A DNA stretch of 64,000 nt from positions 106,256-170,255 of the IMG/VR virus record IMGVR_UViG_3300023184_000031. The stretch is one strand, 5' to 3'. Shown here piece after piece: positions 33,871-64,000 of the stretch. Origin of the DNA: a virus (taxonomy: Duplodnaviria > Heunggongvirae > Uroviricota > Caudoviricetes). The notes beneath the pieces are model-generated. The model ran no database searches. It was not told where the DNA came from and saw nothing but the letters and a program-made list of their open reading frames with translations. Positions within the stretch are counted from its first letter, which is position 1, and every line of letters begins with the position of its first letter. The translations under genes and the position numbers were made by a program.

Positions 33871-33895
33871 TATTTATTGGAGAAAATATAACCAT

Positions 33896-37079: not shown

Positions 37080-37084
37080 CTAAT

Positions 37085-37384: not shown

Positions 37385-37411
37385 CTTGTTTTCGAACCCT
37401 TTATATATTTA

Positions 37412-38144: not shown

Positions 38145-38150
38145 AATATG

Positions 38151-38588: not shown

Positions 38589-38597
38589 CACTCAAGG

Positions 38598-40135: not shown

Positions 40136-40167
40136 GTGATATTTATTGTCACAAAACCATTATTACC

Positions 40168-43336: not shown

Positions 43337-43576
43337 TTGGCACAACTCTTTTCATATATTTACGGTATGAAAAATGTAAAGCAAAAAGATGATAAACGTG
43401 AGTGGTTCATAGTTATGAACTCTAGATTAGAATACTTTGCAGGGATGATGTATGGTGGTGAATTGGTTTGGTGTAGTGACTATAAAGAAGCAAAATTACT
43501 AGATGATGAAGCTAAGTTTCGAACATTAAGATCACTATCATATGGTGAGGAACTTATCTTAGATTATGTAGAATGA
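43337..43576 (+). CDS. Hypothetical protein.
   Basis: ORF. Confidence 0.45.
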   Translation: MAQLFSYIYGMKNVKQKDDKREWFIVMNSRLEYFAGMMYGGELVWCSDYKEAKLLDDEAKFRTLRSLSYGEELILDYVE

Positions 43577-47561: not shown

Positions 47562-48137
47562 ATGAAACAGTCCCTCATTGTGCTGTTACTGCTGACCTTC
47601 TCTTTTATACTTAAAGCACAACCACTCGCCCAACAAGAAGTAGAACTATGTCCTGGTATTAGAACTAATTTTACTTACTTTTCCACTGCAATTACCACAA
47701 CAGGAAACTGGACGTGGACACTAAATGGAATCCCTATCTCCACAATTAGTAATACTAATATAAACTGGACTGATACAGGATATTTCACTATTAAAGTACA
47801 ATATATTGATAGCTGCGGTGTTGATACTAAATCATATATAGTACATGTATCTAAATGTAGACCAGCAGTTATATATTTTCCAAACGCATTTACACCCAAT
47901 AGAGATGGAATTAATGATGGTTGGAGACCTATAGGCGTTAATATAGTAAGTATAAAATATAACATCTGGAATAGATGGGGTGAAAGAGTATTTGAGGGTC
48001 ATAGCATGAATGATAAATGGAATGGGATGTATAAAGGAATGCCTCAAGATATAGCTACTTTTGTTGTACAAGCATTTTGGAAAGATATTACAGGAAAAGA
48101 GGGATATTACAAAGGTTTTATTATATTGATAAGATGA
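47562..48137 (+). CDS. Secreted protein with type-B T9SS (gliding-motility-associated) C-terminal domain.
   Basis: Signal peptide. 'VIYFPNAFTPNRDGINDGWRPIG...KWNGMYKGMPQDIATFVVQAF' matches the PNAFSPNGDGIND-type CTD. Confidence 0.7.
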   Translation: MKQSLIVLLLLTFSFILKAQPLAQQEVELCPGIRTNFTYFSTAITTTGNWTWTLNGIPISTISNTNINWTDTGYFTIKVQYIDSCGVDTKSYIVHVSKCRPAVIYFPNAFTPNRDGINDGWRPIGVNIVSIKYNIWNRWGERVFEGHSMNDKWNGMYKGMPQDIATFVVQAFWKDITGKEGYYKGFIILIR

Positions 48138-49258
48138 GAATATTATTAGTTATATTACTATTACCCTTTTTGGGTTATTCACAATGCGGTAATTTAGATT
48201 TTGAAACAGGTAATTTTACTGGTTGGAATGCTAGATTAGGTACTTGTTGTCCTATTGCTTTACCAACAGCTGGATTTGCTAATACCAGACAAACAATAAT
48301 GACCCAAGGCATTGATCCTCACACTTGTGGAGGATTAAGAACAGTATATCAAGGAACATACTCAGCAAGATTGGGCAATGATAGAGTAGGTGCTCAAGCA
48401 GAAGGATTATCATATTCATTTGTTGTGACACCTCAAACAAATATTATTAAATATGCTTATGCTGTTGTATTTCAAGACCCAGGACACTCTCCAGCTGATC
48501 AACCTCGATTTCAATCACGTGTTAGATTAGCAAATGGTACAGTAATACCTTGTACTGATTATACAGTAACAGCAGCATCTAATTTACCTGGGTTTCAGTA
48601 TTGTCCACCTCCACCTCCTGATACAGCAAATGTTGCTTGGAAAGATTGGACTGAAGTTGCTTTAGATTTATCTGCTTATACTGGTCAAACAGTATCACTT
48701 GAATTTGAAACAGGCGATTGCAAATTAAGAGGTCACTATGGATATGCTTATATAGATGCTGTTCAATGTGGAATGTTAGATACTCATGTACCCTATTGTA
48801 GTGGAGACAATTTATTAACTATAAACGCAATGGGTGGTTTTGTTAGTTATCTTTGGGAGAACGGAGATACAACTCAAACAACGACTATCAATCCTAATTT
48901 ATACGATACTGTATCTTGTGTTGTAACAACATATAGCGGCTGTCAAATAACATTACATTATATATTAGACGCAACACCAATTATTCCCTCATTTACAGCA
49001 CCTAATGTTTGTTTAGGTAACCCAACTCAATTCAATAACACAACACAACCACTTCCCGGTTATACACTGCTATATAGTTGGAATTTTGGTGATAATAATA
49101 CCTCTACTGTTGTTTCTCCATCTCATACCTATTTATCTGTAGGAACATATAATATTACACTTACTGCTAATGCATTAGGTAGTTCGTGTAATGCATCTGT
49201 TCAGGGACAAGTAATAGTAAAACCATTACCAACAATAACCCCAATTATACATAATTAA
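48134..49258 (+). CDS. Secreted protein with C-terminal PKD domain.
   Basis: Signal peptide 'MRILLVILLLPFLGYSQC'. 'YSWNFGDNNTSTVVSPSHTYLSVGTYNITLTA' PKD signature. ATGA overlap with the upstream gene. Confidence 0.7.
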   Translation: MRILLVILLLPFLGYSQCGNLDFETGNFTGWNARLGTCCPIALPTAGFANTRQTIMTQGIDPHTCGGLRTVYQGTYSARLGNDRVGAQAEGLSYSFVVTPQTNIIKYAYAVVFQDPGHSPADQPRFQSRVRLANGTVIPCTDYTVTAASNLPGFQYCPPPPPDTANVAWKDWTEVALDLSAYTGQTVSLEFETGDCKLRGHYGYAYIDAVQCGMLDTHVPYCSGDNLLTINAMGGFVSYLWENGDTTQTTTINPNLYDTVSCVVTTYSGCQITLHYILDATPIIPSFTAPNVCLGNPTQFNNTTQPLPGYTLLYSWNFGDNNTSTVVSPSHTYLSVGTYNITLTANALGSSCNASVQGQVIVKPLPTITPIIHN

Positions 49259-51634: not shown

Positions 51635-52642
51635 ATGAAAAAATTACTAGTGTGTCTTGTGACATTGTGGATATTGTCTACAAATGTCAACGCCCAATGT
51701 ACAGACGTATTTGGGAATATAGTCGAGTGTCCTACTGAGAACGACTCGCTAGCAGTTTACAACAACGCTTTAAAAGTATATGATTTTTACGAAAAGAGTC
51801 CTAATTATAGAAAATTATCTTCTAGAAAGTTAAGAACAAGACAAGACGTATTAAATTGTTTCTATAGTTTACAAGATGCAGTTGATAGTTTTAGAACATT
51901 ATGGCAAAGAAGAGAACAAGTATTAAAAGGAGCTGATTTACCTGGAGTATTATTACCTAGAGGGGGTAGAAATATACCTATAAATGAATATTATCAATAT
52001 ATTGATGCTTATAGATTCTATCAACGCGAATTAGAAAATGGAATATTAAATACTAATTCACCATTTCCTATTTATGATACTAGAATCAATCCTTTAGTTG
52101 TTAACTCATATAACAATGAAATAGGATATGATGATTTCAATGGTGACTTTGTTAACGTAGCATTATATATTCCAGTAACAATTAAGCCATTTAGATTATT
52201 AACTGATTCAGAAAAAGTAATAAGACAAAAGATACTTAGTGGTATAATTCCAAATAAGGTTATTCCAAAAACTACTAAAAAGGATAAACCAAAACCACAA
52301 ATACCACCTCCAGGTAAAAGAATAACATCTGATACTACATTATTACCTAGTGCTAATATTGATTTTGATACAATAAGATTAGTTAAAAAAGATGAAATGA
52401 TATTTGGTAAAGTACCATCTGATGGTATTCCTATATACTTATGGGAACCAAATGGTGGTGGATGGATAATTGGTTGGATGGTAAAAAGACAATTTAGAAA
52501 ATTCTTACCAACAGATGAACATTATTGGTCAGTACCTAAACGTATTAAAGCATTTTTAAATGATGATGCTGCTGTTGAGAAATACTTAAGATTAAAATAT
52601 GGTGACTACTATGATGGTTACTATTTTGGAGGGCAAGATTAA
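51635..52642 (+). CDS. Secreted hypothetical protein.
   Basis: Signal peptide 'MKKLLVCLVTLWILSTNVNA'. Confidence 0.5.
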   Translation: MKKLLVCLVTLWILSTNVNAQCTDVFGNIVECPTENDSLAVYNNALKVYDFYEKSPNYRKLSSRKLRTRQDVLNCFYSLQDAVDSFRTLWQRREQVLKGADLPGVLLPRGGRNIPINEYYQYIDAYRFYQRELENGILNTNSPFPIYDTRINPLVVNSYNNEIGYDDFNGDFVNVALYIPVTIKPFRLLTDSEKVIRQKILSGIIPNKVIPKTTKKDKPKPQIPPPGKRITSDTTLLPSANIDFDTIRLVKKDEMIFGKVPSDGIPIYLWEPNGGGWIIGWMVKRQFRKFLPTDEHYWSVPKRIKAFLNDDAAVEKYLRLKYGDYYDGYYFGGQD

Positions 52643-52691
52643 CTTCGTACATTCATAGTGTTAAATAATTAAAAACCAAAAACAATAAGTT

Positions 52692-53492
52692 ATGAATCAA
52701 GAATTGAACACAAGTAGCATGATGAGTAGCAACAGTTACTCACTTGATGAAATTAAAATTATGGCTCCATCAGTATTTACTACTGAGAAAGCAGCTCACC
52801 TAACAGACAAATATATCCAAACACCAACATCACGTGTGGTTGAGGATTTAATGGCATTGGGTTGGCAGGTAACTAAAGCACAAGAAGTTAGATCTAAGAA
52901 ATTTAAAGGATTCCAAAAACACATTGTCGTATTTAGACACCCAGACATTCAAATTAAGGGTAAGAACGGTGATGATTCGTTTCCACAGATCCTATTGACA
53001 AATAGTCATGATGGTAAAGCAGCATTTAATTTCAGAGTAGGTATATTCCGTCTTGTGTGTAGTAATGGATTGGTTATTAGTGATGCTGATTTTAGTAATG
53101 TGAGCATCCGCCATACCAATTACACATTTGAGTCATTACAGGCGAAAGTAAACGAGGTAATTGAGAAGTTACCAGGTCTGGTACAGAAGATTAATCTGTT
53201 TAAAAACACAAACCTAACTGAAGCTCAAATGACTGATTTCGCTTATAAAGCAGTATCATTGCGTAGCAAAGCAACAGTTAATATTATGGAAGTGCTTGAA
53301 GCGACTCGTAGTGAAGATCAAGGTAATGATTTATGGGCTGTGTTTAATAGAGTACAAGAGAAAGTGTTGGGTGGTAGTTATAGCTACGGACGTAAACAAC
53401 GTAAGGCACGTTCAGTAACATCATTCCAAAAGGATATTGAGTTGAATGAGAAATTGTTTGAATTAGCAGGTTCGTATTTAGTAGAAGCTTAA
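52692..53492 (+). CDS. Phage/plasmid-associated protein (DUF932-like), tentative.
   Basis: 'FRLVCSNGLVI' and overall size recall the DUF932 family. Preceded by the conserved promoter motif and followed by a terminator. Confidence 0.4.
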   Translation: MNQELNTSSMMSSNSYSLDEIKIMAPSVFTTEKAAHLTDKYIQTPTSRVVEDLMALGWQVTKAQEVRSKKFKGFQKHIVVFRHPDIQIKGKNGDDSFPQILLTNSHDGKAAFNFRVGIFRLVCSNGLVISDADFSNVSIRHTNYTFESLQAKVNEVIEKLPGLVQKINLFKNTNLTEAQMTDFAYKAVSLRSKATVNIMEVLEATRSEDQGNDLWAVFNRVQEKVLGGSYSYGRKQRKARSVTSFQKDIELNEKLFELAGSYLVEA

Positions 53493-53498
53493 GAAATT

Positions 53499-53520
53499 GG
53501 AGGGGCGAAAGCCCCTCCTT
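53499..53520 (+). terminator. Rho-independent terminator.
   Basis: 'ggaggggc-gaaa-gcccctcc' + 'tt'. Confidence 0.65.
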
Positions 53521-53531
53521 ATATTTACGTT

Positions 53532-53867
53532 ATGGAAAAGATATACAAGTGTCCTAAATGCGACGAACAAGAAAATTTACATTTCAATTATGATTACAAT
53601 CAACAACACAGACCTATTAAAGATGTGTTATGCAATGAATGTGGTACAACATTTGATGGTAATATGTCTGTAGATGCTCTTCTAACTAAACCCGGTTTTG
53701 TTGAACGCAGAATGGCGCTTGGTAAACACAACAACGACAAACAATGGGATGACATATATGAAGAATATTCTATGGAACAATATCCCCCCTTTGGTGGGCC
53801 ATTTACTGACGCATTATCATTTATTGATTGGTTAAAACAATATTATATAGTACCAGAAAGAATATAG
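53532..53867 (+). CDS. Zinc-ribbon protein.
   Basis: 'CPKCDEQ...CNECG'. Confidence 0.45.
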   Translation: MEKIYKCPKCDEQENLHFNYDYNQQHRPIKDVLCNECGTTFDGNMSVDALLTKPGFVERRMALGKHNNDKQWDDIYEEYSMEQYPPFGGPFTDALSFIDWLKQYYIVPERI

Positions 53868-53869
53868 CT

Positions 53870-54193
53870 ATGGGTAAATACACAGAAGAAGAATGGATTG
53901 CATTAAATAATGCTGTACCCTCAAAGCAAGAATATCCTGAATTAGAAGGGACATTAGCCCTTTGTAACGAAATTATTAATAATAGAGAAATGAATAAAGG
54001 AAAATTATTTAAAACAGGATGGGATAATTGGTTATTAAAAGTAAATGGTATATCATATCCAATTCATCAACAACATTCTTTTTGGTTAAAGATATTTGGT
54101 GAAGAAGGAATGGAACTTGCTTTTGAAAGGCAAGGTAGTGAAGTTATATTAAAAGCAAACGGGCCAGATACACACTCCTACACACAAGATTAA
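53870..54193 (+). CDS. Hypothetical protein.
   Basis: ORF; start trimmed to MGKYTEEEW. Confidence 0.4.
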   Translation: MGKYTEEEWIALNNAVPSKQEYPELEGTLALCNEIINNREMNKGKLFKTGWDNWLLKVNGISYPIHQQHSFWLKIFGEEGMELAFERQGSEVILKANGPDTHSYTQD

Positions 54194-54196
54194 GTT

Positions 54197-54481
54197 ATGA
54201 AAAAAAATAAAGATGAAATCATTGTTGAAGAAATGATCAACAAAATGTTTGAGATAGCAGGTCATCAAGTTACCTTTGAAGATATTAAAGGTAGAACTGA
54301 TAACTGGTATCAACAATGGACAATGACTGAAGCGCAAAACAAAGAATGGAGAGAATGGGGTGTAAAATACCTTAAAAAACAGAAAGGTTTGTATAAGCAC
54401 TACGCTGAAAGACAAATGGCTATGTTTGATCTGAATTACGGATTAAAATTCGAACAATTAGAAACAAATAAAACAATATAA
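54197..54481 (+). CDS. Hypothetical protein.
   Basis: ORF with 'taagttatg' start context. Confidence 0.45.
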   Translation: MKKNKDEIIVEEMINKMFEIAGHQVTFEDIKGRTDNWYQQWTMTEAQNKEWREWGVKYLKKQKGLYKHYAERQMAMFDLNYGLKFEQLETNKTI

Positions 54482-54483
54482 CA

Positions 54484-54789
54484 ATGGCAAGAGCTAAAAA
54501 AACAACAGTACAAGAATTAAAGGAATTGATTGAAGCAACTCCTAAAGCAAAAACATTAACTAAAGCTCAATTCAAAACACTTGAAGAAGTATCTGAGAAA
54601 CTATCAGCTATAAGACGTGGTTTGTATGAGTTAGAAGGCGAAGAAAACATTAGTACAATTATGTTTAAAGTAGGATCAGTACATACTAATGCTGATTGGT
54701 GTGAAGATGCAGTAAGTGATATCATTAATTCATTTGATGAGGATAATTATGAAGATTGTGATGATGAGGATGATGATAATAGATGGTAA
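54484..54789 (+). CDS. Acidic hypothetical protein.
   Basis: ORF with Asp/Glu-rich C-terminus. Confidence 0.45.
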   Translation: MARAKKTTVQELKELIEATPKAKTLTKAQFKTLEEVSEKLSAIRRGLYELEGEENISTIMFKVGSVHTNADWCEDAVSDIINSFDEDNYEDCDDEDDDNRW

Positions 54790-54817
54790 GGCAAAACAAT
54801 AATCGTACATTCACGTT

Positions 54818-55372
54818 ATGATAATATTTAAAGGTAAAAAACGTAAATACATTCACACTAGAGATATTCATTTAAAGGATATTCGCGCTGTGTTTTTTCC
54901 AAAGAACTTCCATGAAAAATATCAATACTTAGGTTCAATACCTTGGAATGAAGAGGGAGCTATGTTCAAAGCAATGGAGCCGCTAGTAATCTTTATGGAT
55001 TATAAAGCAAAACCTAAATGGTGTCCTAGATGGGTATTACGTTTTTTACATTTATTTGGTAGTGATAACTCAATTGTTAGAGTAAGGAATAAACGTTTAT
55101 ATGAATTAGAGAGACGTTTGACTAAAGGTATTCAACTCACTGACTATAAGACTAAATGGGAGTGGTACGATTTAAGAATATCTGTTTATGGTACTGATCA
55201 AATGCAGAATCTAGCTGATGCTATTGAACATAAGTTTTATAGTGATGGACTTAGAGAAGATCTTGCAGATCAAATTAAAGAATTAGATCCAGATACTAAT
55301 TTCGATAAAGGATATTGTACTGAGAATTTAAAAAAAGAATTAGATAGATTAGAAACCATAAACGATAAATAA
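54818..55372 (+). CDS. Hypothetical protein.
   Basis: Preceded by the 'cgtacattcacgttatg' motif. Confidence 0.5.
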   Translation: MIIFKGKKRKYIHTRDIHLKDIRAVFFPKNFHEKYQYLGSIPWNEEGAMFKAMEPLVIFMDYKAKPKWCPRWVLRFLHLFGSDNSIVRVRNKRLYELERRLTKGIQLTDYKTKWEWYDLRISVYGTDQMQNLADAIEHKFYSDGLREDLADQIKELDPDTNFDKGYCTENLKKELDRLETINDK

Positions 55373-55373
55373 T

Positions 55374-55622
55374 ATGAGCGGAGGAGCATTTGACTACCAA
55401 CAATATAGTATTAAAACGATTGCTGAAGAAATTGAGCAAATAATAGAGCATAATTCTTACAAATTCCCAGACGATATAATTGAGGAATTTAAGACGGGTG
55501 TAGATATACTTAGAAAAGCTCATGTTTATGCTCAACGAATTGATTGGTTAATAAGTGGGGATGATGGCGAAGAATCATTCCGTGAACGATTAAAAGAAGA
55601 ATTAGATTGGTTGGCAAAATAA
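55374..55622 (+). CDS. Hypothetical protein.
   Basis: ORF. Confidence 0.45.
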   Translation: MSGGAFDYQQYSIKTIAEEIEQIIEHNSYKFPDDIIEEFKTGVDILRKAHVYAQRIDWLISGDDGEESFRERLKEELDWLAK

Positions 55623-55653
55623 CAATTGTATATTCAATTCAAATAAATAAGTT

Positions 55654-56214
55654 ATGAAAACATTAGTAATACATCCAGATGATAGATCAACAGATTTCCT
55701 GATTCCGATCTATATGAATCTCAAATCGTTTCCTGATTATGATGATGTAACAATCATTAGAGGTGGATATTCAAAAGATGAAGTTGATCAAATGATTAGA
55801 GAACATGATCGTATTATGATGATGGGTCATGGTTCACCTGGTGGTTTATTCTCAGTAGGTCAATTCGAATCACAAGGATTTATTATTAATCATACTACAG
55901 TTCCATTACTGCAAGATAAAGAATGTATATTTATTTGGTGTAACGCAGATCGATTCGTTGAAGCAAATAATCTAAAAGGATTATATAGTGGAATGTTTAT
56001 ATCAGAGATAAGCGAAGCAAATTACTGTGGACTACCAAATATACCACAAGAAGTGGTTAATGAATCAAATGATTTCTTCGCTGCTGAATTTGGATTAATA
56101 GCTGATAAACCACTGAATGAAATATATGATACAATTAAATACAACTACAATATATTAGCTGAAAATAATTCAATAGCAGAATATAATGCAGAGCGTCTAT
56201 ATTTAAACTCGTAA
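55654..56214 (+). CDS. Hypothetical protein.
   Basis: Preceded by the 'tgtatattcaattcaaataaataagttatg' motif. Confidence 0.5.
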   Translation: MKTLVIHPDDRSTDFLIPIYMNLKSFPDYDDVTIIRGGYSKDEVDQMIREHDRIMMMGHGSPGGLFSVGQFESQGFIINHTTVPLLQDKECIFIWCNADRFVEANNLKGLYSGMFISEISEANYCGLPNIPQEVVNESNDFFAAEFGLIADKPLNEIYDTIKYNYNILAENNSIAEYNAERLYLNS

Positions 56215-56233
56215 TTAAAAACCAAAAACATAA

Positions 56234-56428
56234 ATGGCAATCCAAACCAAGGACGACGCACAATCAAAAGCAGACAGACGCTTAGATAGAAATCTAAATC
56301 AACCGGCAAGACCAAAGAAGTACATTCCACTAATTGAAAGAAAATTTAGTGATTTAGTATCATTAGAAGATCAATTAAAATGGGTTGAATTAAAGAAAAA
56401 ACAAAAAGACAAAGATCAAACATGGTAG
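56234..56428 (+). CDS. Basic hypothetical protein.
   Basis: ORF. Confidence 0.4.
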   Translation: MAIQTKDDAQSKADRRLDRNLNQPARPKKYIPLIERKFSDLVSLEDQLKWVELKKKQKDKDQTW

Positions 56429-56700
56429 TAGTAATTATTATAATGGGTTTTACTATAGCAGCACTATTAGTATTTGTAATAATGTTGAATAGTATGATAG
56501 GAAGTTTAAATAAACAACTTATATTATTGGAGAAGGAACAACATACCCAAAATAAGGAAATAATGGAGTTGATGAAAGGCAATATAACGCATCAAGAAAT
56601 GTTGTTACAACACATTGAAATACTTAAATACTTGGTTGAGCAAGACCCTAAACTAAACTCAGGTAAACTATACTTCACAGGACCTATGGGAGAGGCATAA
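56422..56700 (+). CDS. TM + coiled-coil small protein.
   Basis: N-terminal hydrophobic helix 'VVVIIIMGFTIAALLVFVIML'. Confidence 0.45.
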   Translation: MVVVIIIMGFTIAALLVFVIMLNSMIGSLNKQLILLEKEQHTQNKEIMELMKGNITHQEMLLQHIEILKYLVEQDPKLNSGKLYFTGPMGEA

Positions 56701-56730
56701 CATATTATATTTATAATAAAATAATTTAAC

Positions 56731-56931
56731 ATGGATAATCATATATCATTTGAAAATATCCTTAGAGAATATGAAAGTAAATCTAAGGAGAGAAAAGAAA
56801 AACAACGAATAAAAAAACTAGCAAATATAAAAGAAAATCAAATTTCCCCTTTAGTTACAAATGGAGTCACAGAATTTAGAAAACTTATAAATCAAATTAA
56901 AGATGAAGTTAAGAGAAGAGGAAGTAAGTGA
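56731..56931 (+). CDS. Hypothetical protein.
   Basis: ORF. Confidence 0.4.
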   Translation: MDNHISFENILREYESKSKERKEKQRIKKLANIKENQISPLVTNGVTEFRKLINQIKDEVKRRGSK

Positions 56932-57157
56932 TTTAGTTTATTTAGGTAAAAGATTAGATAAAGTATTAAAATATTTAATAGAATCTAAATCCGAATTTAA
57001 AGATAATTTCTTAGAATATATTAATAACTATTTTCTACCAATAATAAATGGTGATATTACTCAAGAAGAAGAAGATTATTTCTTTGAAGAAATGGATAAT
57101 ATTATAGATGAATTAGAAGAAATATTTTCCCAAACATTTGAGAATAAAATATCATAA
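56903..57157 (+). CDS. Acidic hypothetical protein.
   Basis: ORF. Confidence 0.4.
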   Translation: MKLREEEVSDLVYLGKRLDKVLKYLIESKSEFKDNFLEYINNYFLPIINGDITQEEEDYFFEEMDNIIDELEEIFSQTFENKIS

Positions 57158-57182
57158 TATTTATGATTAAAAATTAAAAAAC

Positions 57183-57350
57183 ATGTCAGCACAAACAGAA
57201 ATGAAAGTAATCAGCGTCTTGTTAGACGAGGCAATGAATGAAGGTCTAGAAGTAGAAGTCATTTATTCTGCTCTGAAAGTAATGAGAGAGGAAGAAACAA
57301 TGACGCCATCTCAAGCATTTCAAGAGGCAATGAACGAATGGGTAAAATAA
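57183..57350 (+). CDS. Small hypothetical protein, 55 aa.
   Basis: ORF MSAQTEMKVISVLLDEAMNEGLEV...; not in the ORF track. Confidence 0.3.
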   Translation: MSAQTEMKVISVLLDEAMNEGLEVEVIYSALKVMREEETMTPSQAFQEAMNEWVK

Positions 57351-57616
57351 AGATTTTGATTTTTGGTTATAATAGATGGGTAGGGCAAAATGCTCTACCT
57401 ATCTTTATTTCAAATAAAAAAGTTATGAGTATAAAATTAATACAAACAGAAACAACATTTGATGTTGAATATAATGAACAAACATATAGTGTTACAATGT
57501 TAGAAGATAGTGTTAGTTTAGGTTATACACAATATGATGTGTATAATGAAGAGGGTGAATTAGTTGAAGGTGATTTAGAAGAAGAAATAATCAACTACTT
57601 AGAAGAAAATATCTAA
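57338..57616 (+). CDS. Hypothetical protein.
   Basis: ORF. Confidence 0.4.
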   Translation: MGKIKILIFGYNRWVGQNALPIFISNKKVMSIKLIQTETTFDVEYNEQTYSVTMLEDSVSLGYTQYDVYNEEGELVEGDLEEEIINYLEENI

Positions 57617-57663
57617 GGCACAATTTCAGTCGTATATTCACGTTAACCAAAAATAAATAAGTT

Positions 57664-58473
57664 ATGAAAAAAAGAGGTAGACCATCTAAAGTGCAAAATG
57701 TAGTTCATGTTCCGTCACTAATTGACTTCGGACAAATTACAATGCTTAACCAACTAAACATTGACAGGCGAATGCTTGAATCAATGGAAACAGAAAGTGA
57801 AGTAATTAATCAGTTATTCAGTGATGAAGGAGGTATTCCGTGTGCATCAAATTACATGATGATTGGAGATCCTGGTGTAGGTAAAACTACAGTATTATTG
57901 GATGTACTTGCTATGGTTCAAAACTATGACCGACAACGTAAGTGTTTGTTCATTAGTGGTGAAATGGGACGTAAGCAAATGTTCAAATATACAGAGCGTT
58001 TCCCGCAGTTCGGATTTGTTAAAACGCTATTCATGGCTGATTATCTTGAGTACAACACTAAAGATGTATTTGAGCAAATATTATCACAAGGATGGGATTT
58101 GATTCTAATTGATAGTGCCGCTGAAATTATTGATGGTGTTAGGGATGATAATGGATGGGATAGAAAAACTGCTGAAGCATGGTTCGTTGATATATGCATC
58201 AAGCATAATAAAGGCGAGAATACAGGAAGAAAATATACATCGTTTCTAGCTATTCAGCAAGTGACTAAACAAGGCGAATTCGTAGGTAGCAACAAATTAA
58301 AACACCTTTTTGATGCAATGGGAGAGATGCGTCGTGAGTCTGAACGTAACGGAGGAGGTACATATATTGCATTTACTAAGAATAGAAACGGAAATGTAGG
58401 TATTAAATTCAGTTACCAATTAGAAAACGGAAATATATCCTATGGTATATTAAATGAAGAAGTAGATGCTTAG
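57664..58473 (+). CDS. RecA-superfamily P-loop ATPase (DnaB C-terminal/RadA/Sak4-like).
   Basis: Walker A 'GDPGVGKTT'. Walker B 'LILIDSAAEI'. 269 aa. Preceded by the conserved promoter motif. Confidence 0.65.
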   Translation: MKKRGRPSKVQNVVHVPSLIDFGQITMLNQLNIDRRMLESMETESEVINQLFSDEGGIPCASNYMMIGDPGVGKTTVLLDVLAMVQNYDRQRKCLFISGEMGRKQMFKYTERFPQFGFVKTLFMADYLEYNTKDVFEQILSQGWDLILIDSAAEIIDGVRDDNGWDRKTAEAWFVDICIKHNKGENTGRKYTSFLAIQQVTKQGEFVGSNKLKHLFDAMGEMRRESERNGGGTYIAFTKNRNGNVGIKFSYQLENGNISYGILNEEVDA

Positions 58474-58516
58474 GCACTACTTCTTTCTTACATTCACATC
58501 ACACAAATAATTAATT

Positions 58517-58711
58517 ATGCAAACAGCAGTAGAATGGTTAGCAGAAATAGTATGTAAAATGGGTTACGTTTCTTCTAACATAGTAGAACAAGCCAAACAA
58601 ATGGAAAAGCAACAGATAATGGATGCTGCAAATACGTTATTGTATCACTCAACAGGACCAGGTAATACAGCAGCAGAACAATACTACAATGAAACATTTA
58701 AAAAAGATTAG
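58517..58711 (+). CDS. Hypothetical protein.
   Basis: ORF. Confidence 0.4.
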   Translation: MQTAVEWLAEIVCKMGYVSSNIVEQAKQMEKQQIMDAANTLLYHSTGPGNTAAEQYYNETFKKD

Positions 58712-58713
58712 TT

Positions 58714-58929
58714 ATGGAATTTAAAAACGAAGACGAACTAAAACAATACATCAAACGCGTACTAGAAGAAGGTGATATATCGCCTGGTTATATTGATAAC
58801 TATATTGACTGTATAATGGCTTATAGCTCAGTAGAAGATTATGTTGGTGTAACAGACGAAGCGGTTTGGGGTGATTTTAGTGATTGGATGGATGATGATA
58901 TTGATTGGAAGGCAAAGCAACAATGGTAG
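58714..58929 (+). CDS. Acidic hypothetical protein.
   Basis: ORF. Confidence 0.4.
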   Translation: MEFKNEDELKQYIKRVLEEGDISPGYIDNYIDCIMAYSSVEDYVGVTDEAVWGDFSDWMDDDIDWKAKQQW

Positions 58930-59141
58930 ATTCACATTATAAAATAAAAGTTATGATAGTAAAAATTAATTTGACAATATTAATAGTTTTAGCGATTCTC
59001 GCATGTGGGAGTGGAATAATGCTGAATGTAGATGAAAAAAGAGAAGAATTTTGGCTTAAAACCGGTCAGACTCTTCTTGCATTAATGTTTATAGAATGCG
59101 CAGTGTGGTTACTAATATCAATATGGACAGATCAAATATAG
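58905..59141 (+). CDS. Small membrane protein.
   Basis: Two hydrophobic helices. Confidence 0.4.
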   Translation: MEGKATMVDSHYKIKVMIVKINLTILIVLAILACGSGIMLNVDEKREEFWLKTGQTLLALMFIECAVWLLISIWTDQI

Positions 59142-59254
59142 TTAGATGGCGAAATAGAGTAGACGCACCGTGCCGAAAGCCCCCGCAACAAAGAACGGCA
59201 ATACGGAGAGAGCATTGGGCGACTTTCATACAGGTTCAAGTCCTGTTCTAACTA
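59140..59254 (+). tRNA. Atypical ~115 nt class-II (Leu-type) tRNA-like gene with an enlarged central region.
   Basis: Acceptor agttaga/tctaact. Leu-like D-arm 'tggcgaaatagagtagacgc'. T-arm acagg-ttcaagt-cctgt. The central stem ccgtgccg/cggc..tacgg encloses ~20 nt; no canonical 7-nt anticodon loop found. Confidence 0.4.
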
Positions 59255-59269
59255 CTAAAAATAAATGTT

Positions 59270-59560
59270 ATGCAAAGTATTTACAAATCACCACTAGGAC
59301 TCTCAGTCGAAAAGTATGATTGGGATAAAAACTTCACCATTACAGGTAAGTTATTCAAATCAATGACAATGAAGGAATTTGATTCTGCTTATGATGTAGA
59401 AGATTTCATTCAAGCAAAAATTAACTGTAAAGGAATAGATTTTGATAGTGAATATTGTCAATTCTTTGCATACGCCAAAACTAAAAACCGAGCAATGACG
59501 TTTGTTAAGGAAATAGAAGATTATTTCGCTAAGGTAAGAGAGATGTTGTCGGCAAAATAA
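59270..59560 (+). CDS. Hypothetical protein.
   Basis: ORF. Confidence 0.45.
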   Translation: MQSIYKSPLGLSVEKYDWDKNFTITGKLFKSMTMKEFDSAYDVEDFIQAKINCKGIDFDSEYCQFFAYAKTKNRAMTFVKEIEDYFAKVREMLSAK

Positions 59561-59611
59561 AAATCGTACATTCACGTTATACAAATAATTAAAAACCAAA
59601 AACAAATAGTT

Positions 59612-59935
59612 ATGACAAAGCAATCAACAATCGAGTTATTAGAAAAACAATTACCTGGATTTTATTCAGTAGAACAAGTTATTAAGTTAATTAATGACAT
59701 TGAAGAATCAGAAACATTTGAGTTTCATAGTGATTCAATTGAAGAATTAACTAGTAATATTGTTGACGCATTAGACAGCGAAGGAACAGATCTTATTGAT
59801 GATTATGATTTGAGTATGAATTCTAGAGAAGTAGAACTTGATAGTATAGAATTTGATACAAGTAGAATTAGACGTGTAGTTGAAGATGCATTAGAAGAGT
59901 TTATGGAACAACTTAAACAAGCAGATGCCGAATAG
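59612..59935 (+). CDS. Acidic hypothetical protein.
   Basis: Preceded by the 'cgtacattcacgttat' motif. Confidence 0.45.
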   Translation: MTKQSTIELLEKQLPGFYSVEQVIKLINDIEESETFEFHSDSIEELTSNIVDALDSEGTDLIDDYDLSMNSREVELDSIEFDTSRIRRVVEDALEEFMEQLKQADAE

Positions 59936-59976
59936 GCACTGCTTTTTTTATACATTCACCCTATAAATAAACAGTT

Positions 59977-60147
59977 ATGAAACAAACGCTAACCGCACTC
60001 GCATGCATTCTAGTAATGGCAAGTTGTTATACAATTAAAGCCGACAATCAACACCACAAATATACCTACACATTTAAACGAAGTGGTGTAATATATCAAG
60101 TAACACAAGATTATACTAAAATAATCACGATTGATACATTAAGGTAG
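59977..60147 (+). CDS. Small lipoprotein, 56 aa.
   Basis: 'MKQTLTALACILVMASC' signal peptide with lipobox. Not in the ORF track. Confidence 0.35.
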   Translation: MKQTLTALACILVMASCYTIKADNQHHKYTYTFKRSGVIYQVTQDYTKIITIDTLR

Positions 60148-60160
60148 TATTTATGGTTGT

Positions 60161-60463
60161 ATGACCAAATTAATATTAACCATTATCTTAATGCTAATGT
60201 TATGTTCAGCTACTGCTCAACGCAGTAAAGATACAGTTATTGTTTGGTATAGTCCACCAGTGTATGATAATAATTTATTAGTTCAAAAGAAAGCAAGAGT
60301 ATTTACTAACTGCATACCAACACATCAAGATACAATTGACTTTGGTGAGCGATTAGATATAGAATGGTTTGAAAGTTTCAATAATGGTTTACAGCAAGCC
60401 TTAGATAGTTTTAGAAGAACAGTATTGAAAGGCAAAGCAAAAAGCGGACATTTACAGTATTAA
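60161..60463 (+). CDS. Secreted small protein.
   Basis: Signal peptide 'MTKLILTIILMLMLCSATAQ'. Confidence 0.45.
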   Translation: MTKLILTIILMLMLCSATAQRSKDTVIVWYSPPVYDNNLLVQKKARVFTNCIPTHQDTIDFGERLDIEWFESFNNGLQQALDSFRRTVLKGKAKSGHLQY

Positions 60464-60483
60464 ATAATTAAAACAAATCAGTT

Positions 60484-60741
60484 ATGGCAGAATTCAGTAA
60501 ACAATTTTGTGAAATAAAAGACATGGGTTTTGATGGTGATTTTGATGTATATGAAGAATGGTCTAAGTTAACACCCGGCTACGCAGTAGCTTATATATGC
60601 GAAGGATTTGGTTTCAGTATGATTGGTAAGAAAGAATCAAGTGATGAAGTGTTTGTGTATATGCATGATTGGGATAATCCTGAGAATGGTAAATGGGTTA
60701 ATTTTGATGATTTGGTTTTGAAGGCAAAATCCAATTCGTAG
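60484..60741 (+). CDS. Hypothetical protein.
   Basis: ORF. Confidence 0.4.
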   Translation: MAEFSKQFCEIKDMGFDGDFDVYEEWSKLTPGYAVAYICEGFGFSMIGKKESSDEVFVYMHDWDNPENGKWVNFDDLVLKAKSNS

Positions 60742-60768
60742 ATTCACGTTAACCAAAAATAAATAATT

Positions 60769-60969
60769 ATGAAAATTGAATTTTTTAAAGAAACAAAAGT
60801 AAACGGTAAAGAATTATATTTTACTAGAGTCAATAGTAGTTTCGTTGATGGTAGTTTAGAATTCGATCAGGATAAAGCAAAAACAATATACGATAATATT
60901 GTAGCGAATGGTGGTAAAATGACAATTGAAGAAGTACTCGAATCAGTAGAGATTGAAGTGGCAGAGTAA
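60769..60969 (+). CDS. Hypothetical protein.
   Basis: Preceded by the full promoter motif. Confidence 0.45.
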   Translation: MKIEFFKETKVNGKELYFTRVNSSFVDGSLEFDQDKAKTIYDNIVANGGKMTIEEVLESVEIEVAE

Positions 60970-61006
60970 TAGTCGTAGATTCACGTTAACCAAAAAATAA
61001 AACGTT

Positions 61007-61279
61007 ATGAAATTAAAAATGAGTGATTACGATGCAATGAGTACTGAAGATTTAAGAGCTATTAATAAAATGGTAGTTAAAATACTCAGAAGTAGACAAA
61101 ACGATAAGCTAGAAGAAATTAAAGACCAACTCAGGGTCGGTTCTAAAGTAACAATCAATCACTCCAGAACACACGGCGAAACATTTACCATTACAGAAAT
61201 TAGACGCAAACGAGCTACAGTTAAGGGTCAATATGGTAGTTCACTTAATGTTCCAATTGCATTAGTAACATTGTGTTAG
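61007..61279 (+). CDS. Hypothetical protein.
   Basis: Preceded by the full promoter motif. Confidence 0.45.
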   Translation: MKLKMSDYDAMSTEDLRAINKMVVKILRSRQNDKLEEIKDQLRVGSKVTINHSRTHGETFTITEIRRKRATVKGQYGSSLNVPIALVTLC

Positions 61280-61322
61280 GCACAATTCAAAGCGTAAATT
61301 CACATTAACCAAATAATTAGTT

Positions 61323-61628
61323 ATGAAAAAAACATTCAAGGAAATAGGTGGTACATCATTCCACGACACAACAGTAGGTACTACAGTTCACACATTAACT
61401 AAAATATTAGGCGAACCAGAATACTCAGGTAATGATGGTAAAGATAAAATAAATTTTCAATGGGAAATGGAAACGAGTAGTGGTGATGTGTTTACAGTAT
61501 ATGATTATAAAACATATAGACCATTAGACGAACACGAAATAATTGAGTTTCATATTGGTGGTCACAGTAAAGCAGTGACAGAACAAGCTAAAAATGAAAT
61601 GTACGATACAATGGCGAACCTAAAATAG
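61323..61628 (+). CDS. Hypothetical protein.
   Basis: Preceded by the promoter motif. Confidence 0.45.
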   Translation: MKKTFKEIGGTSFHDTTVGTTVHTLTKILGEPEYSGNDGKDKINFQWEMETSSGDVFTVYDYKTYRPLDEHEIIEFHIGGHSKAVTEQAKNEMYDTMANLK

Positions 61629-61676
61629 GCAAAATAGCAGTCGTATATTCACATCACACAACAATACGTATATACA

Positions 61677-61829
61677 ATGACAGTAGAAGAAGCAAAATCA
61701 GCACTAATTGACTTGTTAAAAGAACAAGTAGAACAACTATCAGTAATGTCCAAAATCGAATTGGGTGACGATGTGATAGAAGAATATAACAGATTAAGTG
61801 AAGTAATTGCGGCAAAGGAACAATCATAA
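61677..61829 (+). CDS. Small hypothetical protein, 50 aa.
   Basis: ORF MTVEEAKSALIDLLKEQ...; preceded by 'cgtatattcacatcacaca'. Confidence 0.3.
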   Translation: MTVEEAKSALIDLLKEQVEQLSVMSKIELGDDVIEEYNRLSEVIAAKEQS

Positions 61830-61855
61830 ATTTAATTAACCAAAAACAATTAATT

Positions 61856-62089
61856 ATGGCAATTTACGGAGATGGTAAACACAACGAAAATATGGAATAT
61901 ACATCTAATACAAACGAAAAAGATTTATTCCTTTGGAAAGACGGCGACTATGACGCCCAAGGCGGATTCTTCGTTAGAAACGACCTTAAAGTATTTATTA
62001 ATAAATTAATCGAAGCAGGACACAAACCAGTAGGTATTAAGGTCGATTTAGAATCATTTAATTTAGAAGTATTAGTGGCGGCAGAATAA
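61856..62089 (+). CDS. Hypothetical protein.
   Basis: ORF. Confidence 0.4.
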   Translation: MAIYGDGKHNENMEYTSNTNEKDLFLWKDGDYDAQGGFFVRNDLKVFINKLIEAGHKPVGIKVDLESFNLEVLVAAE

Positions 62090-62125
62090 ATGTATTAGAT
62101 TTAATTAACCAAAAAATAATTAGTT

Positions 62126-62323
62126 ATGAATAATTCTTACAGCGATTCTTATGGTGTATTTTGTATGGCAATGTTAATGGATAAACACAACACAAAGGAG
62201 TTAGATGTGTGGTGGGATGAAGCGATTGAGTTATATAAGGAATTTATTAAAAGTAAATTTAATAATTCTAATCAATCAGAATTAGATTGTATAAATCAAT
62301 TTATAACGAGTAAGGCAGAGTAA
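62126..62323 (+). CDS. Hypothetical protein.
   Basis: ORF. Confidence 0.4.
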   Translation: MNNSYSDSYGVFCMAMLMDKHNTKELDVWWDEAIELYKEFIKSKFNNSNQSELDCINQFITSKAE

Positions 62324-62359
62324 TGATCGTATATTCAATTAACCAAAAAATAATTAGTT

Positions 62360-62578
62360 ATGACACAATTCGAAGAAAATAATCCTCAACAACTTAAAGA
62401 ATTTATTCGTCAATTAATGATACTCACAGACGAATTTCACCCAAACATATATACAATAGAGGGTGTATGGGAAGGTGTAACTAAAATTCAACAATCAGTT
62501 ACTAATGTGTTAGCAGGTAATAATGATGCAGATATGGAGGTACAAGACTATAATGTGTTTGGTGAAGATAAGATATAG
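62360..62578 (+). CDS. Hypothetical protein.
   Basis: Preceded by the promoter motif. Confidence 0.4.
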   Translation: MTQFEENNPQQLKEFIRQLMILTDEFHPNIYTIEGVWEGVTKIQQSVTNVLAGNNDADMEVQDYNVFGEDKI

Positions 62579-62624
62579 TAGGCACAGTTTTTTTTGTACA
62601 TTCATTTTAACCAAAAAATCAGTT

Positions 62625-62750
62625 ATGAGCTTCAAACAAGAATTAATAAAATTATTATCAGAGGATTGTATAGAAATGGGATTTATAATTTATATAGCGG
62701 CAGTTGTAACTCTTATAGCTATAAGGCAACGAGATAAGGCACAACAATAG
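62625..62750 (+). CDS. Tiny TM protein, 41 aa.
   Basis: 'MSFKQELIKLLSEDCIEMGFIIYIAAVVTLIAI'. The promoter motif sits just upstream, so the listed start at 62523 is unlikely. Confidence 0.3.
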   Translation: MSFKQELIKLLSEDCIEMGFIIYIAAVVTLIAIRQRDKAQQ

Positions 62751-62783
62751 TCGTATATTCACATTAACCAAAAATAATTAGTT

Positions 62784-62963
62784 ATGCAATTAGAAGAATT
62801 AAAACAACAAGTCATTAATAAATTAGGTGAAATGTATAATGAACATTTTATAATCGACATTAATGAGTGTAATAGTGGATATGAGTTATTGTATACATTA
62901 GAGGAATATGGTTATGATACACAAGGCGGTTTACATATTTTATTCTCAATTCTAATTGATTAG
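62784..62963 (+). CDS. Small hypothetical protein, 59 aa.
   Basis: ORF after the promoter motif; not in the ORF track. Confidence 0.3.
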   Translation: MQLEELKQQVINKLGEMYNEHFIIDINECNSGYELLYTLEEYGYDTQGGLHILFSILID

Positions 62964-63009
62964 GCACAGTTTTTTTTGTACATTCATTTAAACCAAAAAA
63001 TAATTTTTT

Positions 63010-63270
63010 ATGCCAAACATGAGTTATTGCCAATTCGAAAACACATACAAAGATTTGTTACAATGCCTAAACGCAATGAACGATGATTTAAGCGAAGACG
63101 AAACAGCATATAAACGCCGTTTAGTTGATGTTTGTAAAGAAATCATTGACGAGTACGAACTGAATAAAATGAGTAATGAAGAAGACGGTGAATGGGGATT
63201 TGATATAGTAGAACTGGAACGTGGGGAGAATGATAATGACGATATACCGTGGGATACTCAGACAAGATAA
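63010..63270 (+). CDS. Acidic hypothetical protein.
   Basis: Preceded by the promoter motif. Confidence 0.45.
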   Translation: MPNMSYCQFENTYKDLLQCLNAMNDDLSEDETAYKRRLVDVCKEIIDEYELNKMSNEEDGEWGFDIVELERGENDNDDIPWDTQTR

Positions 63271-63325
63271 TATGGTTTTTTTGGCAAGGTTTTTTGTGTA
63301 AATCCAATTAATAAATAAAATAACA

Positions 63326-63529
63326 ATGAATATAATAGAAATACAAACAATACAAACGACGGCGAATATAGTAGGATGGTTTTTTTTAATCGCGTCGTGG
63401 GTAACACCGAGATTTTTTAAGCAAGAAAAGACGAAGGGATATGGGTTAGGTATAGCTTTTGCTGTAACAGCAATTGCGTTTTTTATGGTTGCTTTAGGTA
63501 TTAGTATTGCTGCTGTATTTAATAGATAA
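63326..63529 (+). CDS. Small membrane protein.
   Basis: Two hydrophobic helices. Confidence 0.45.
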   Translation: MNIIEIQTIQTTANIVGWFFLIASWVTPRFFKQEKTKGYGLGIAFAVTAIAFFMVALGISIAAVFNR

Positions 63530-63960
63530 TGTTTTTACTTCGCTTCTAATGCGCTAATACACATATGTTTTTGTGTTAAAATATCACGTTTTTGTGTAAT
63601 AAATGCGCCTTTTTTGTGCTAGGTATAGATGGGTTTATAAATTAAATGGGTGTCAAACATAAATGCGTCTATAATATAGTCCGGTCTATAAGATAGACCA
63701 TATATACGAGCCGTTATGTATGTGGAATAGATGTGGAGTATGTGGTATGCGGTGATGTGAAGAATCCATTTTTATGCCCCGCCCCGCCACGTTTCTTTGT
63801 TATAAAGCATTTTTTTGGCACAACTTTTTTTGTACATTCACGCTATGAAAACAATAATACGATATCTAAAGGCGTTAAATTTTTTGCTGGATATATTTTT
63901 GTTATGGTGGGTTTGGAGTTGGATTTTTGATGAAATAAAGAGGGAAAGGCAAGAAAAAAA
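63530..63960. promoter_or_regulatory. ~430 bp non-coding, repeat-rich region; candidate origin or regulatory/packaging region.
   Basis: Four copies of 'TTTTTGTG(T/C)'. Three copies of 'AATGCG(C/T)C'. Four copies of 'ATGTGG'. Inverted repeat 'ggtctata-ag-atagacc' (63683-63699). GC-rich 'ccccgccccgcc'. Confidence 0.4.
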
Positions 63961-64000
63961 GCGTAAATTCAATTAACCAAATAAATAAAAATGAGTAAAA

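Follow-up and report, generated by a model that had tools for sequence, protein, structure and literature searches.

The repeated element and its copies

The 64-kb stretch analysed here (IMG/VR record IMGVR_UViG_3300023184_000031, positions 106,256 to 170,255; hereafter the window) corresponds to positions 54,679-118,678 of the 170,341-bp metagenomic contig ENA ERZ3460575 NODE_84, and a near-identical 168-kb genome exists. It belongs to an uncultured, distantly T4-like phage of 170 kb whose host is probably a member of the Bacteroidota, as suggested by an encoded CHU_C type IX secretion domain and by the lack of any GGAGG-type Shine-Dalgarno sequence before start codons. All genes of the window lie on the + strand. 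Between 52.6 and 64 kb, a signal of about 50 bases recurs before small genes, almost all of which are ORFans, as fits an early or hyperplastic region. At a threshold of at least 12 bits, 22 copies are found there, all co-oriented and none on the minus strand, together with one weaker variant, and a scan of the stretch L067 revealed 11 more in the ~4.7 kb beyond the window end, up to a window-equivalent position of ~68.7 kb; the whole array comprises about 34 copies in 16 kb.

When the copies were anchored on their core, TAnATTCA, the consensus read a-GGCA-(c/a)-a-(a/g)-(t/c)-N5-T-c-G-TAnATTCA-c-n-T-T-A-(a)CCAAAAA...(A-rich)...GTT-ATG. Core and upstream box follow a rigid order, namely GGCA, exactly 12 nucleotides (nt), TAnATTCA, 4 nt (c-g/a-T-T) and a conserved A. 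GGCA stands at a fixed distance 5' of the core in every copy of the array region, TAnATTCA is present in all 18 strong window copies, and the GGCA-N12-TAnATTCA spacing is kept in 18 of 19 pairs in the window and in 201 of 214 pairs in related phages (described below). Numbered from the conserved A as +1, GGCA occupies -28 to -25 and is followed by m-a-R-y, TCG occupies -15 to -13 and the core -12 to -5, with near-continuous conservation from -15 to +9. The spacer between the boxes is A/T-rich, including around -18. A G/T-rich patch (TTKG) at -35 to -32, seen independently of any weight matrix, is weak: in 71 of 308 copies, TTTG or TTGG precedes TA by 18-20 nt, compared with 1-3 copies at more distal offsets, and the patch reads TTTG in several more distant contigs. 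The core keeps T-12, A-11, T-8 and T-7, four of the six bases that define the host element, while C-6 and A-5 replace T-6 and G-5; position -10 is a G in the copies with TAGATTCA. The motif contains neither inverted repeats nor dyad symmetry.

Downstream of each copy, an open reading frame (ORF) begins with an ATG placed either on the predicted start ("leaderless" below) or 13-33 nt beyond it. The copies of the array, with their weight-matrix scores in bits, are the following:

Copy 1, 52632-52694 (+): GGCA 52632-52635, TACATTCA 52648-52655, predicted start 52660; leader long, containing a second AAAAACCAAAAAC module; ATG 52692 of a DUF932 gene; 25.0 bits
Copy 2, 54790-54820 (+), leaderless: TACATTCA-cgtt-ATG, ATG 54818 on the predicted start; 184-codon ORF; conserved in relatives L044, L017 and L008; 41.2 bits
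Copy 3, 55613-55656 (+): TATATTCA 55629; ATG 55654; 30.6 bits
Copy 4, 57617-57666 (+), consensus-like: AGGCAC-N-TCGTATATTCACGTTAACCAAAAATAAATAAGTTATG; before an AAA/KaiC-like ATPase gene; at orthologous sites in 6 relatives the motif is kept and the upstream sequence has diverged; 41.4 bits
Copy 5, 58473-58519 (+): TACATTCA 58489; ATG 58517; 34.1 bits
Copy 6, 58911-58955 (+): TAGATTCA 58927, its TAG being the stop of the upstream ORF; ATG 58953; 35.2 bits
Copy 7, 59551-59614 (+): TACATTCA 59567; leader long, containing an extra AAAAACCAAAAAC module; ATG 59612; orthologues exist; 37.9 bits
Copy 8, 59935-59979 (+), T-run spacer subtype: TACATTCA 59951; ATG 59977; 29.4 bits
Copy 9, 60431-60486 (+), degenerate: GGCA-N12-GGACATTTA; ATG 60484; 21.2 bits
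Copy 10, 60723-60771 (+): TAGATTCA 60739, its TAG being the upstream stop; ATG 60769; cassette junction; 36.4 bits
Copy 11, 60960-61009 (+): TAGATTCA 60976; ATG 61007; cassette junction; 37.2 bits
Copy 12, 61279-61325 (+): TAAATTCA 61295; ATG 61323; 34.5 bits
Copy 13, 61628-61679 (+): TATATTCA 61644; ATG 61677; 36.2 bits
Copy 14, 61811-61858 (+), variant: TAAATTTA, GGCA-N12 spacing and TTAACCAAAAA leader kept; ATG 61856; 12.7 bits
Copy 15, 62080-62128 (+), variant: TAGATTTA, GGCA-N12 spacing and leader kept; ATG 62126; pattern match with 1 mismatch
Copy 16, 62314-62362 (+): TATATTCA 62330; ATG 62360; 29.9 bits
Copy 17, 62581-62627 (+), T-run spacer subtype: near-identical to copy 19; ATG 62625 (41-aa ORF); 35.9 bits
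Copy 18, 62738-62786 (+): TATATTCA 62754; ATG 62784; 40.2 bits
Copy 19, 62963-63012 (+), T-run spacer subtype: ATG 63010; 33.7 bits
Copy 20, 63283-63328 (+), degenerate: TAAATCCA; ATG 63326; 17.3 bits
Copy 21, 63817-63847 (+), leaderless: TACATTCA-cgct-ATG; ATG 63845; 36.6 bits
Copy 22, 63948-63993 (+): TAAATTCA 63964; ATG 63991; 23.1 bits

Outside the array, the window holds these:

6708: related copy
10032-10062 (+), leaderless: TAGATTCC-ggtt-ATG; clamp-loader (gp44-like) gene, 307 codons from the predicted start; 21.6 bits
35595-35644 (+): weak hybrid copy, GGCA-N12-TATATTTA; 13.2 bits
43339-43369 (+), leaderless: GGCAC-N11-TATATTTA-cggt-ATG, ATG 43367; 23.8 bits

The recurrence exceeds what shuffled sequence yields. 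The pattern GCA-N12-TANATTCA, with at most one mismatch, gave 40 matches against 9.0 +/- 3.1 in shuffles, none of 100 shuffles reaching 40, and TTAACCAAAAA at the same tolerance gave 17 matches against 6.6 expected. The 30-nt weight matrix, at a threshold of at least 12 bits, found 25 window matches on the + strand and 0 on the - strand, and 2 of 20 shuffles got to 12 bits.

A preliminary description of this DNA had listed 17 copies, all of which are present within 5 nt of where it placed them, although one full copy (58912) and several degenerate or variant ones (60432, 61812, 62081 and 63284) had been missed. It had also confined the motif to 52.6-64 kb, where the main array does lie; copies occur in addition at 10033, 43340, 35596 and 6708 and past the window end. 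The idea that almost every small gene is preceded by a copy holds for 57.6-64 kb, but not for 53.5-57.6 kb, where ~10 genes are devoid of the motif. Two direct repeats described as almost identical (62579 and 62960) agree at 46 of 55 positions, with a single base differing between TAGGCAC and AAAAAAT. That copies stand upstream of an ATG was confirmed throughout; as for the ATG following immediately, leaders of 13-33 nt are indeed found, whereas the leaderless configuration had been overlooked. The "TAGGCAC" stop context, in contrast, dissolves on alignment: GGCA is an invariant box 12 nt upstream of TA, and the stop codon of the upstream ORF falls in varying registers relative to it (-4/-3, +6, +7, +9, +12 and +15), the TAG or TAA of the core itself being the stop at +15. 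The copies are intergenic or overlap the 3' end of the upstream gene. Upstream genes usually end within the motif, with GCA in frame as an alanine codon (stops at -3, +6, +9, +12 and +15), so that many ORFan proteins would carry motif-encoded C-terminal residues and recombination there could swap C-terminal ends.

Predicted start site, leaders and relatives

In 306 unique copies of the motif in relatives, the number of nucleotides between the core and the first ATG follows a bimodal distribution. Exactly 4 nt are found in a sharp peak of 18 unique cases, of which 17 open ORFs of 40 codons or more; no real ORF start falls at offsets of 7-12 nt, and a broad main mode spans 13-25 nt. ORF-opening ATGs otherwise lie at least 9 nt beyond the conserved A, bar two single exceptions. 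The GGCA-box copies of the window with an ATG at 4 nt number four, at 10060 (clamp loader), 43367, 54818 and 63845. For an mRNA to be leaderless, its gene has to begin at a set distance from the promoter-like element, and +1 is accordingly placed at the conserved A; transcription is thus likely to start at the A 4 nt after TAnATTCA, and leaderless mRNAs seem to be common in this phage. In Flavobacterium johnsoniae, the -7 element (T-12, A-11, T-8, T-7, T-6, G-5) lies 4-5 nt from the start (PMC6847099), and the 4-nt distance found in silico matches this Bacteroidota sigma-A geometry.

The sequence TATATTTA followed by exactly 4 nt and ATG also stands at 6723-6737, 53520-53534 and 43355-43369 (ATGs 6735, 53532 and 43367), the copy at 43355 with a GGCA box and those at 6723 and 53520 without one. 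The first precedes the sliding-clamp gene and the second a gene just after the 53499 terminator. Exact TATATTTA was tried as a second promoter class and was not significant alone (30 found against 22 expected).

The leader reads AACCAAAAA..TAA..GTT-ATG, is A-rich and ends in (A/T)(A/T)GTTATG in most copies. It holds a TAAA-type A-rich tract, a kind of tract that has been described as a ribosome-binding signal in Flavobacterium (PMC2483708). Folding z-scores of six copies ranged from +0.3 to +1.35, that is, less structured than shuffles, and no Rfam match to the motif regions was found, so that a reading as structured RNA or hairpin was dropped. The leader is lineage-specific (AACCAAAAA versus ATAAAATTAA in a second lineage of relatives), whereas the promoter half is common to all lineages, and ACCAAAAA also occurs further downstream or without a core (52667, 56215 and 59590). 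By these comparisons, the leader is regarded as a separable module.

The exact pattern GGCA-N9-TCGTANATTCAC was found in 66 IMG/VR stretches, 48 of which (at least 42 contigs, ~10-180 kb) carry 2-25 matrix matches each. The IMG/VR stretches hold 339 matrix matches, nearly all on a single strand per locus (e.g. 24:0, 24:1, 1:20). Several of these relatives are syntenic with the window at 70-90% nucleotide identity, and orthologous sites have kept the motif blocks next to a diverged spacer and upstream coding sequence. In 185,579 cellular genomes, the long motif pattern had 0 matches; a 15-base pattern gave scattered single matches in unrelated phyla, and 0 of 120 loci among the matches listed had a second matrix match. 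An origin as a host regulon or prophage was rejected, since no arrays occurred in cellular genomes among those matches; the array is therefore a phage property and not a detectable host regulon. No near-identical DNA was found in GenBank phages and the best protein matches are just 30-35% identical, which indicates that there is no close cultured relative or published annotation; nor did a literature search find the motif, or any promoter used by T4-like phages of Bacteroidota, described.

Blocks of homology that the window shares with related contigs start and stop at motif copies. The gene order 60484>60769>61007>61323 of the window, for instance, is 60484>61007>60769>61323 in L030 and L002, and other insertions, deletions and transpositions distinguish L009, L040 and L056, a copy of the motif standing at almost every junction. 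The sequence through the spacer moves with the upstream gene and the leader moves with the downstream gene, which points to crossovers within the shared core and leader. The same 30-45 nt between all cassettes would offer homology for recombination that reorders, inserts and deletes genes among related phages. On these alignments, the motif also marks the seams of gene-cassette swaps between related phages.

A recombination or cassette-junction repeat (a site-specific recombination site or a selfish repeat) devoid of any role in expression, which the junctions of gains, losses and swaps within the motif might suggest, is very improbable, given the lack of inverted repeats or dyad symmetry, the orientation strictly with the genes, the fixed distance to start codons, the presence of the motif ahead of single-copy genes of the conserved core, for example that of the clamp loader (10033), a promoter-like internal architecture that recombination does not need, and the documentation of recombination at repeated promoters as a by-product for PeSLs (PMC4122927).

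Reading of the element

The motif very probably functions as a promoter, and each copy likely constitutes a phage promoter plus a 5' leader cassette. This is supported by co-orientation, intergenic position, rigid bipartite spacing, a -7-like element at a host-type distance, conservation among diverging relatives and the lack of RNA structure. The preliminary description had proposed a phage-specific promoter with a leader, and all computational tests run agree with it. Judged from the sequence, the motif is a real, well-supported regulatory element of an uncultured lineage. RNA polymerase would start at the conserved A and give two types of message, either a leaderless mRNA whose start A is the A of the ATG, or one with an unstructured A-rich leader, mostly of 13-21 nt (AACCAAAAA...TAA..GTT-ATG), which would be suited to translation without a Shine-Dalgarno sequence, as in Bacteroidota.

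As to what reads the promoter, we lean towards the host core polymerase acting through a sigma-A-type -7 contact, because the -12 to -5 element and the 4-nt start distance copy the -7 geometry of Bacteroidota sigma-A. The likeness to this system (sigma-ABfr; -33 TTTG / -7 TAnnTTTG; PMC6847099, PMC2483708) extends from T-12, A-11, T-8 and T-7 to the 4 nt before the inferred start, the A/T-rich spacer, the weak TTKG at the -33 place and the A-rich, TAAA-containing leaders without a Shine-Dalgarno sequence. It differs in that C-6/A-5 occur in all strong copies, so that the -7 consensus is not reproduced, that G is tolerated at -10, and that GGCA at -28 to -25 and TCG at -15 to -13 lack a host counterpart. 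No part of the window shows an enrichment of the canonical TAnnTTTG (99 found against 103 expected), and TTTG-N17-21-TAnnTTTG is not enriched either (1 against 3.6 expected). A comparison with Bacteroidota sigma-A and extracytoplasmic function (ECF) sigma motifs had been proposed in the preliminary description; neither consensus is matched, and the start geometry of sigma-A is shared.

GGCA at -28 to -25 and CA at -6/-5 have no host counterpart, which leads us to infer a phage-specified factor. That such a factor reads the GGCA box is quite plausible, though we stop short of calling it probable. It would be an activator or a sigma-remodelling protein reading GGCA together with CA at -6/-5, analogous in function, not in sequence, to the reader of the T4 MotA box, and it would put the ORFan gene block on a common early-to-middle schedule. 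More tentatively still, GGCA and CA might be the target of a new phage factor that redirects the Bacteroidota sigma-A holoenzyme to the ORFan regulon, by way of a sigma-appropriation-like activator, an anti-sigma pair or a replacement sigma; this we consider rather doubtful. To our knowledge, no phage takeover mechanism is known for the Bacteroidota sigma-A polymerase.

Several points weigh against this picture of a host polymerase guided by a phage factor. The start site was placed from ORF positions alone, and the weight matrix was derived from the window copies, whose own scores are consequently circular. The -33-like patch does not exceed 0.5 bit per position, and T-6 and G-5, nearly invariant in the host, are missing from the -7-like element, so that recognition by host sigma-A is not assured. 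No gene for a sigma, gp55, gp33, MotA, AsiA or RegA was found in ~81 kb of the 170-kb genome, covered with PHROGs and Pfam for most small window proteins and with precomputed Pfam lists for two 10-kb flanks. Moreover, Ma-LMM01, a relative of the phage that gives the best DNA polymerase match (Mel-JY01, see below), has every class of its genes transcribed with the host sigma and is devoid of phage-specific motifs (PMC5780444), which favours a factor-free model.

Such a model, in which unmodified host RNA polymerase with sigma-A alone reads strong early promoters and GGCA, TCG and CA are affinity or kinetic determinants, is a serious possibility, if not the one we would expect. It accounts for the host-type -7-like geometry with 4 nt to the inferred start, the weak TTKG/TTTG patch at the canonical -33 position and the A/T-rich spacer around -18, it agrees with the precedent of Ma-LMM01 and with the lack of a factor gene in the parts inspected, and ORFan-rich blocks are typically early. 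However, it leaves the exchange of nearly invariant T-6 and G-5 for C and A in all strong copies, the G at -10 (TAGATTCA), which is almost absent from host promoters, and an invariant 4-bp box at -28 to -25, where the host consensus is A/T-rich. The canonical host element is not enriched in the window, and the sampled cellular genomes lack arrays or multiple copies among the matches listed.

It is improbable that these are promoters of a phage polymerase or of a phage sigma unrelated to sigma-A, reading -29 to +9 as one unit in the manner of T7-type or jumbo phages. The very rigid spacing, the near-continuous conservation from -15 to +9 and the departure from the host consensus at -6/-5 would suit it, and only about half of the genome was inspected; but no RNA polymerase gene, including one for a single-subunit (T7-like) enzyme, whose promoters have an unbroken conserved block of about 23 bp around the start, and no sigma gene was found in those ~81 kb, the replication module is T4-like and T4-like phages depend on the host polymerase (PMC2988021). 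In addition, the host -7 geometry and the -33-like patch would have to be coincidence, and a lineage-specific leader is hardly part of a recognition unit.

Less probable again is a motif acting at the RNA level, as an endonuclease processing site or a translational operator in polycistronic transcripts comparable to the T4 RegB/RegA targets. The end of the leader, (A/T)(A/T)GTTATG in most copies, seems to resemble the T4 RegA target AAAAUUGUUAUGUAA, and the occurrence of ACCAAAAA 20 nt further downstream or without a core suggests that this part acts in RNA. A translational operator, however, predicts neither the rigid distance from GGCA to the core nor ORFs exactly 4 nt after it; RNA structure is lacking, lineages with different leaders have all conserved the upstream half, and nothing resembling RegA or RegB was found among the window proteins.

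With regard to known systems, our reading of a promoter plus leader, probably served by host polymerase, appears closest in function and genomic behaviour to the PeSL/PmSL cassettes and to the early and middle promoters of T4. At the level of sequence, the element conforms to none of the definitions of PeSL/PmSL, T4 early, middle or late, Bacteroidota sigma-A, sigma-54 or ECF promoters. In the PeSLs and PmSLs of T4-like phages (Arbiol et al. 2010, PMC2839356; Comeau et al. 2014, PMC4122927), a promoter, a translation start and an ATG are likewise repeated between small ORFan genes of a hyperplastic region, and here too promoter and translation-start signals stand directly before clustered ORFs. 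As in those cassettes, the copies border insertions, deletions and gene swaps between close relatives, and PmSLs, too, have an activator box at constant spacing upstream of a -10 element. Unlike them, no stem-loop or terminator precedes the promoter here: the two strong terminators in 52.6-64 kb (53499 and 57374) do not precede a GGCA-type copy. The promoter is furthermore not sigma-70-like but built on the Bacteroidota -7 geometry, the GGCA box is unrelated, there is no Shine-Dalgarno sequence, some genes are leaderless, and host phylum and phage lineage are different. Sigma-70 -35/-10 sites, tried as an alternative, were not enriched (99 found against 112.6 expected).

In T4 middle promoters, the MotA box lies 12 +/- 1 bp upstream of the -10 element and is used by sigma appropriation (Hinton 2010, PMC2988021). 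These promoters share with our element a host-type downstream element joined to a phage-specific upstream box at a fixed distance and an upstream box nearer to the start than the normal -35/-33 element, and about half of them carry an extended -10 (TGn), the counterpart of which would here be TCG. The MotA spacing is reproduced by GGCA-N12-TA in geometry alone, the gap being 8 bp if m-a-R-y belongs to the box. The MotA box, (a/t)(a/t)(a/t)TGCTTtA, differs from aGGCA(m)a(R)(y); the box here is centred near -26 instead of -30 and coexists with a weak -33-like patch, two positions of the downstream element deviate from the host consensus, and, as noted, neither MotA nor AsiA has a homologue in the 81 kb inspected. 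With T4 early promoters, the array has in common many strong promoters before small genes of unknown function, in one co-oriented block with few terminators, and a consensus more extended than that of the host itself; T4 early promoters are, in contrast, near-perfect host sigma-70 promoters, whereas the copies here deviate at conserved host positions.

Other promoter types were considered and rejected. For sigma-54 (GG-N10-GC; TGGCAC-N5-TTGCW, -24/-12), (a/t)GGCAC resembles the -24 element, but the positions 10 nt on are unconserved or T, and GG, counted from the inferred start, occupies -28/-27. ECF sigma factors recognise GGAAC-like -35 and CGT-like -10 elements 16-17 nt apart, and the distance from GGCA to CGTA is only 10 nt and rigid. 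The T4 late promoter (gp55; TATAAATA at -13 to -6) has no upstream element; here, the core is TAnATTCA and the upstream GGCA is obligatory.

Our results provide a testable description of transcription signals (promoter logo, inferred start and leader types) for uncultured, distantly T4-like Bacteroidota phages. With the motif, the start of a tiny gene can be placed correctly, even where the gene is leaderless and gene-calling programs make it too long or overlook it, and the motif may be used to recognise this phage clade in metagenomes. The GGCA box is a possible bait for a regulator, as yet unknown, of the atypical Bacteroidota sigma-A polymerase, and the promoter-leader unit might serve as a compact expression part in the engineering of Bacteroidota. 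The shuffling of gene cassettes at repeated promoters, described in T4-like phages of Proteobacteria, occurs also in a distant lineage without a stem-loop. If a phage factor does redirect the polymerase through GGCA and CA, it would constitute the first switch of the middle-promoter type to be described in phages of Bacteroidota, conserved in a widespread uncultured clade of 170-kb distantly T4-like phages with frequent leaderless mRNAs.

Neighbouring features of the phage genome

Outside the array, TATTTAT(a/t) was found in 11 of 32 upstream regions against 0.6 expected (18-fold). It stands upstream of the genes at 2789, 6290, 9682, 13159, 33896, 34458, 38646, 45663, 45940, 47562 and 51635 and of a fibre gene at ~6250 of L069, mostly before structural, lysis or secreted-protein genes and often after a terminator hairpin. 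We regard TATTTAT as a candidate late promoter; perhaps by coincidence, its reverse complement is the T4 late promoter TATAAATA. Given its place before structural, lysis and secreted-protein genes, the GGCA-type promoters may make up a temporal class of their own, probably an earlier one.

The family-B DNA polymerase encoded by the phage has its best match in Microcystis phage Mel-JY01 (34% identity), with gp43 of T4-like cyanophages at 30%. The window holds gp43-, gp44/62- and gp45-like replication genes (clamp-loader subunits and processivity factor among them), as well as GroES, GroEL, a prohead protease, homing-type endonucleases, two tRNAs and a probable transfer-messenger RNA (tmRNA). 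Secreted or surface-type proteins are encoded at 47562-48137, 45940-47484, 48077-49258 and 40102-41526 (CHU_C, Big_7/PKD, papain-like protease, OmpA/PD40); they support a Bacteroidota host and are an unusual cargo for a lytic phage. From ~17000 to 34000, a low-GC island (0.23-0.29) on the same strand contains genes of nucleotide-sugar or polysaccharide biosynthesis type (glycosyltransferases, epimerase/dehydratase-like and aminotransferase-like genes), which overlap tightly and have no internal promoter motifs. The 5' part of the first ORF of the window (112-2718) belongs to a repeat region of fibre genes, in which, upstream of window position 1 (L069 6748-6847), a run of N marks an assembly gap among gcatcatatgcattaagt repeats.

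At 38150-38591 (+), just downstream of tRNA-Gln (37009-37080) and tRNA-Glu (37312-37385), Rfam matched the tmRNA family RF00023 with 52.8 bits (gathering score 47; E 6e-18), while ARAGORN was silent at default settings; the match looks like a phage-encoded tmRNA. Within the array, a tRNA-like element at 59140-59255 (+) has a clear T-arm (GGTTCAAGTCC) and acceptor stem and no Rfam match, and ARAGORN calls it tRNA-Ala(ggc) with a 22-nt intron solely when introns are allowed. The block 59136-59589 around it is ~87-89% nucleotide-identical in L009 and L002 and is overlapped by a probably spurious 51-aa ORF. Finally, 63530-63817 is an unusually long non-coding stretch for the array, with repeated 'cgtttttgtgt(t/a)a' units and a ccccgccccgcc box, and just beyond the window end (L067 10690-11060) a GC-rich segment with one minus-strand motif match ends in a strong terminator; an origin, a non-coding RNA or foreign DNA are possibilities for both.

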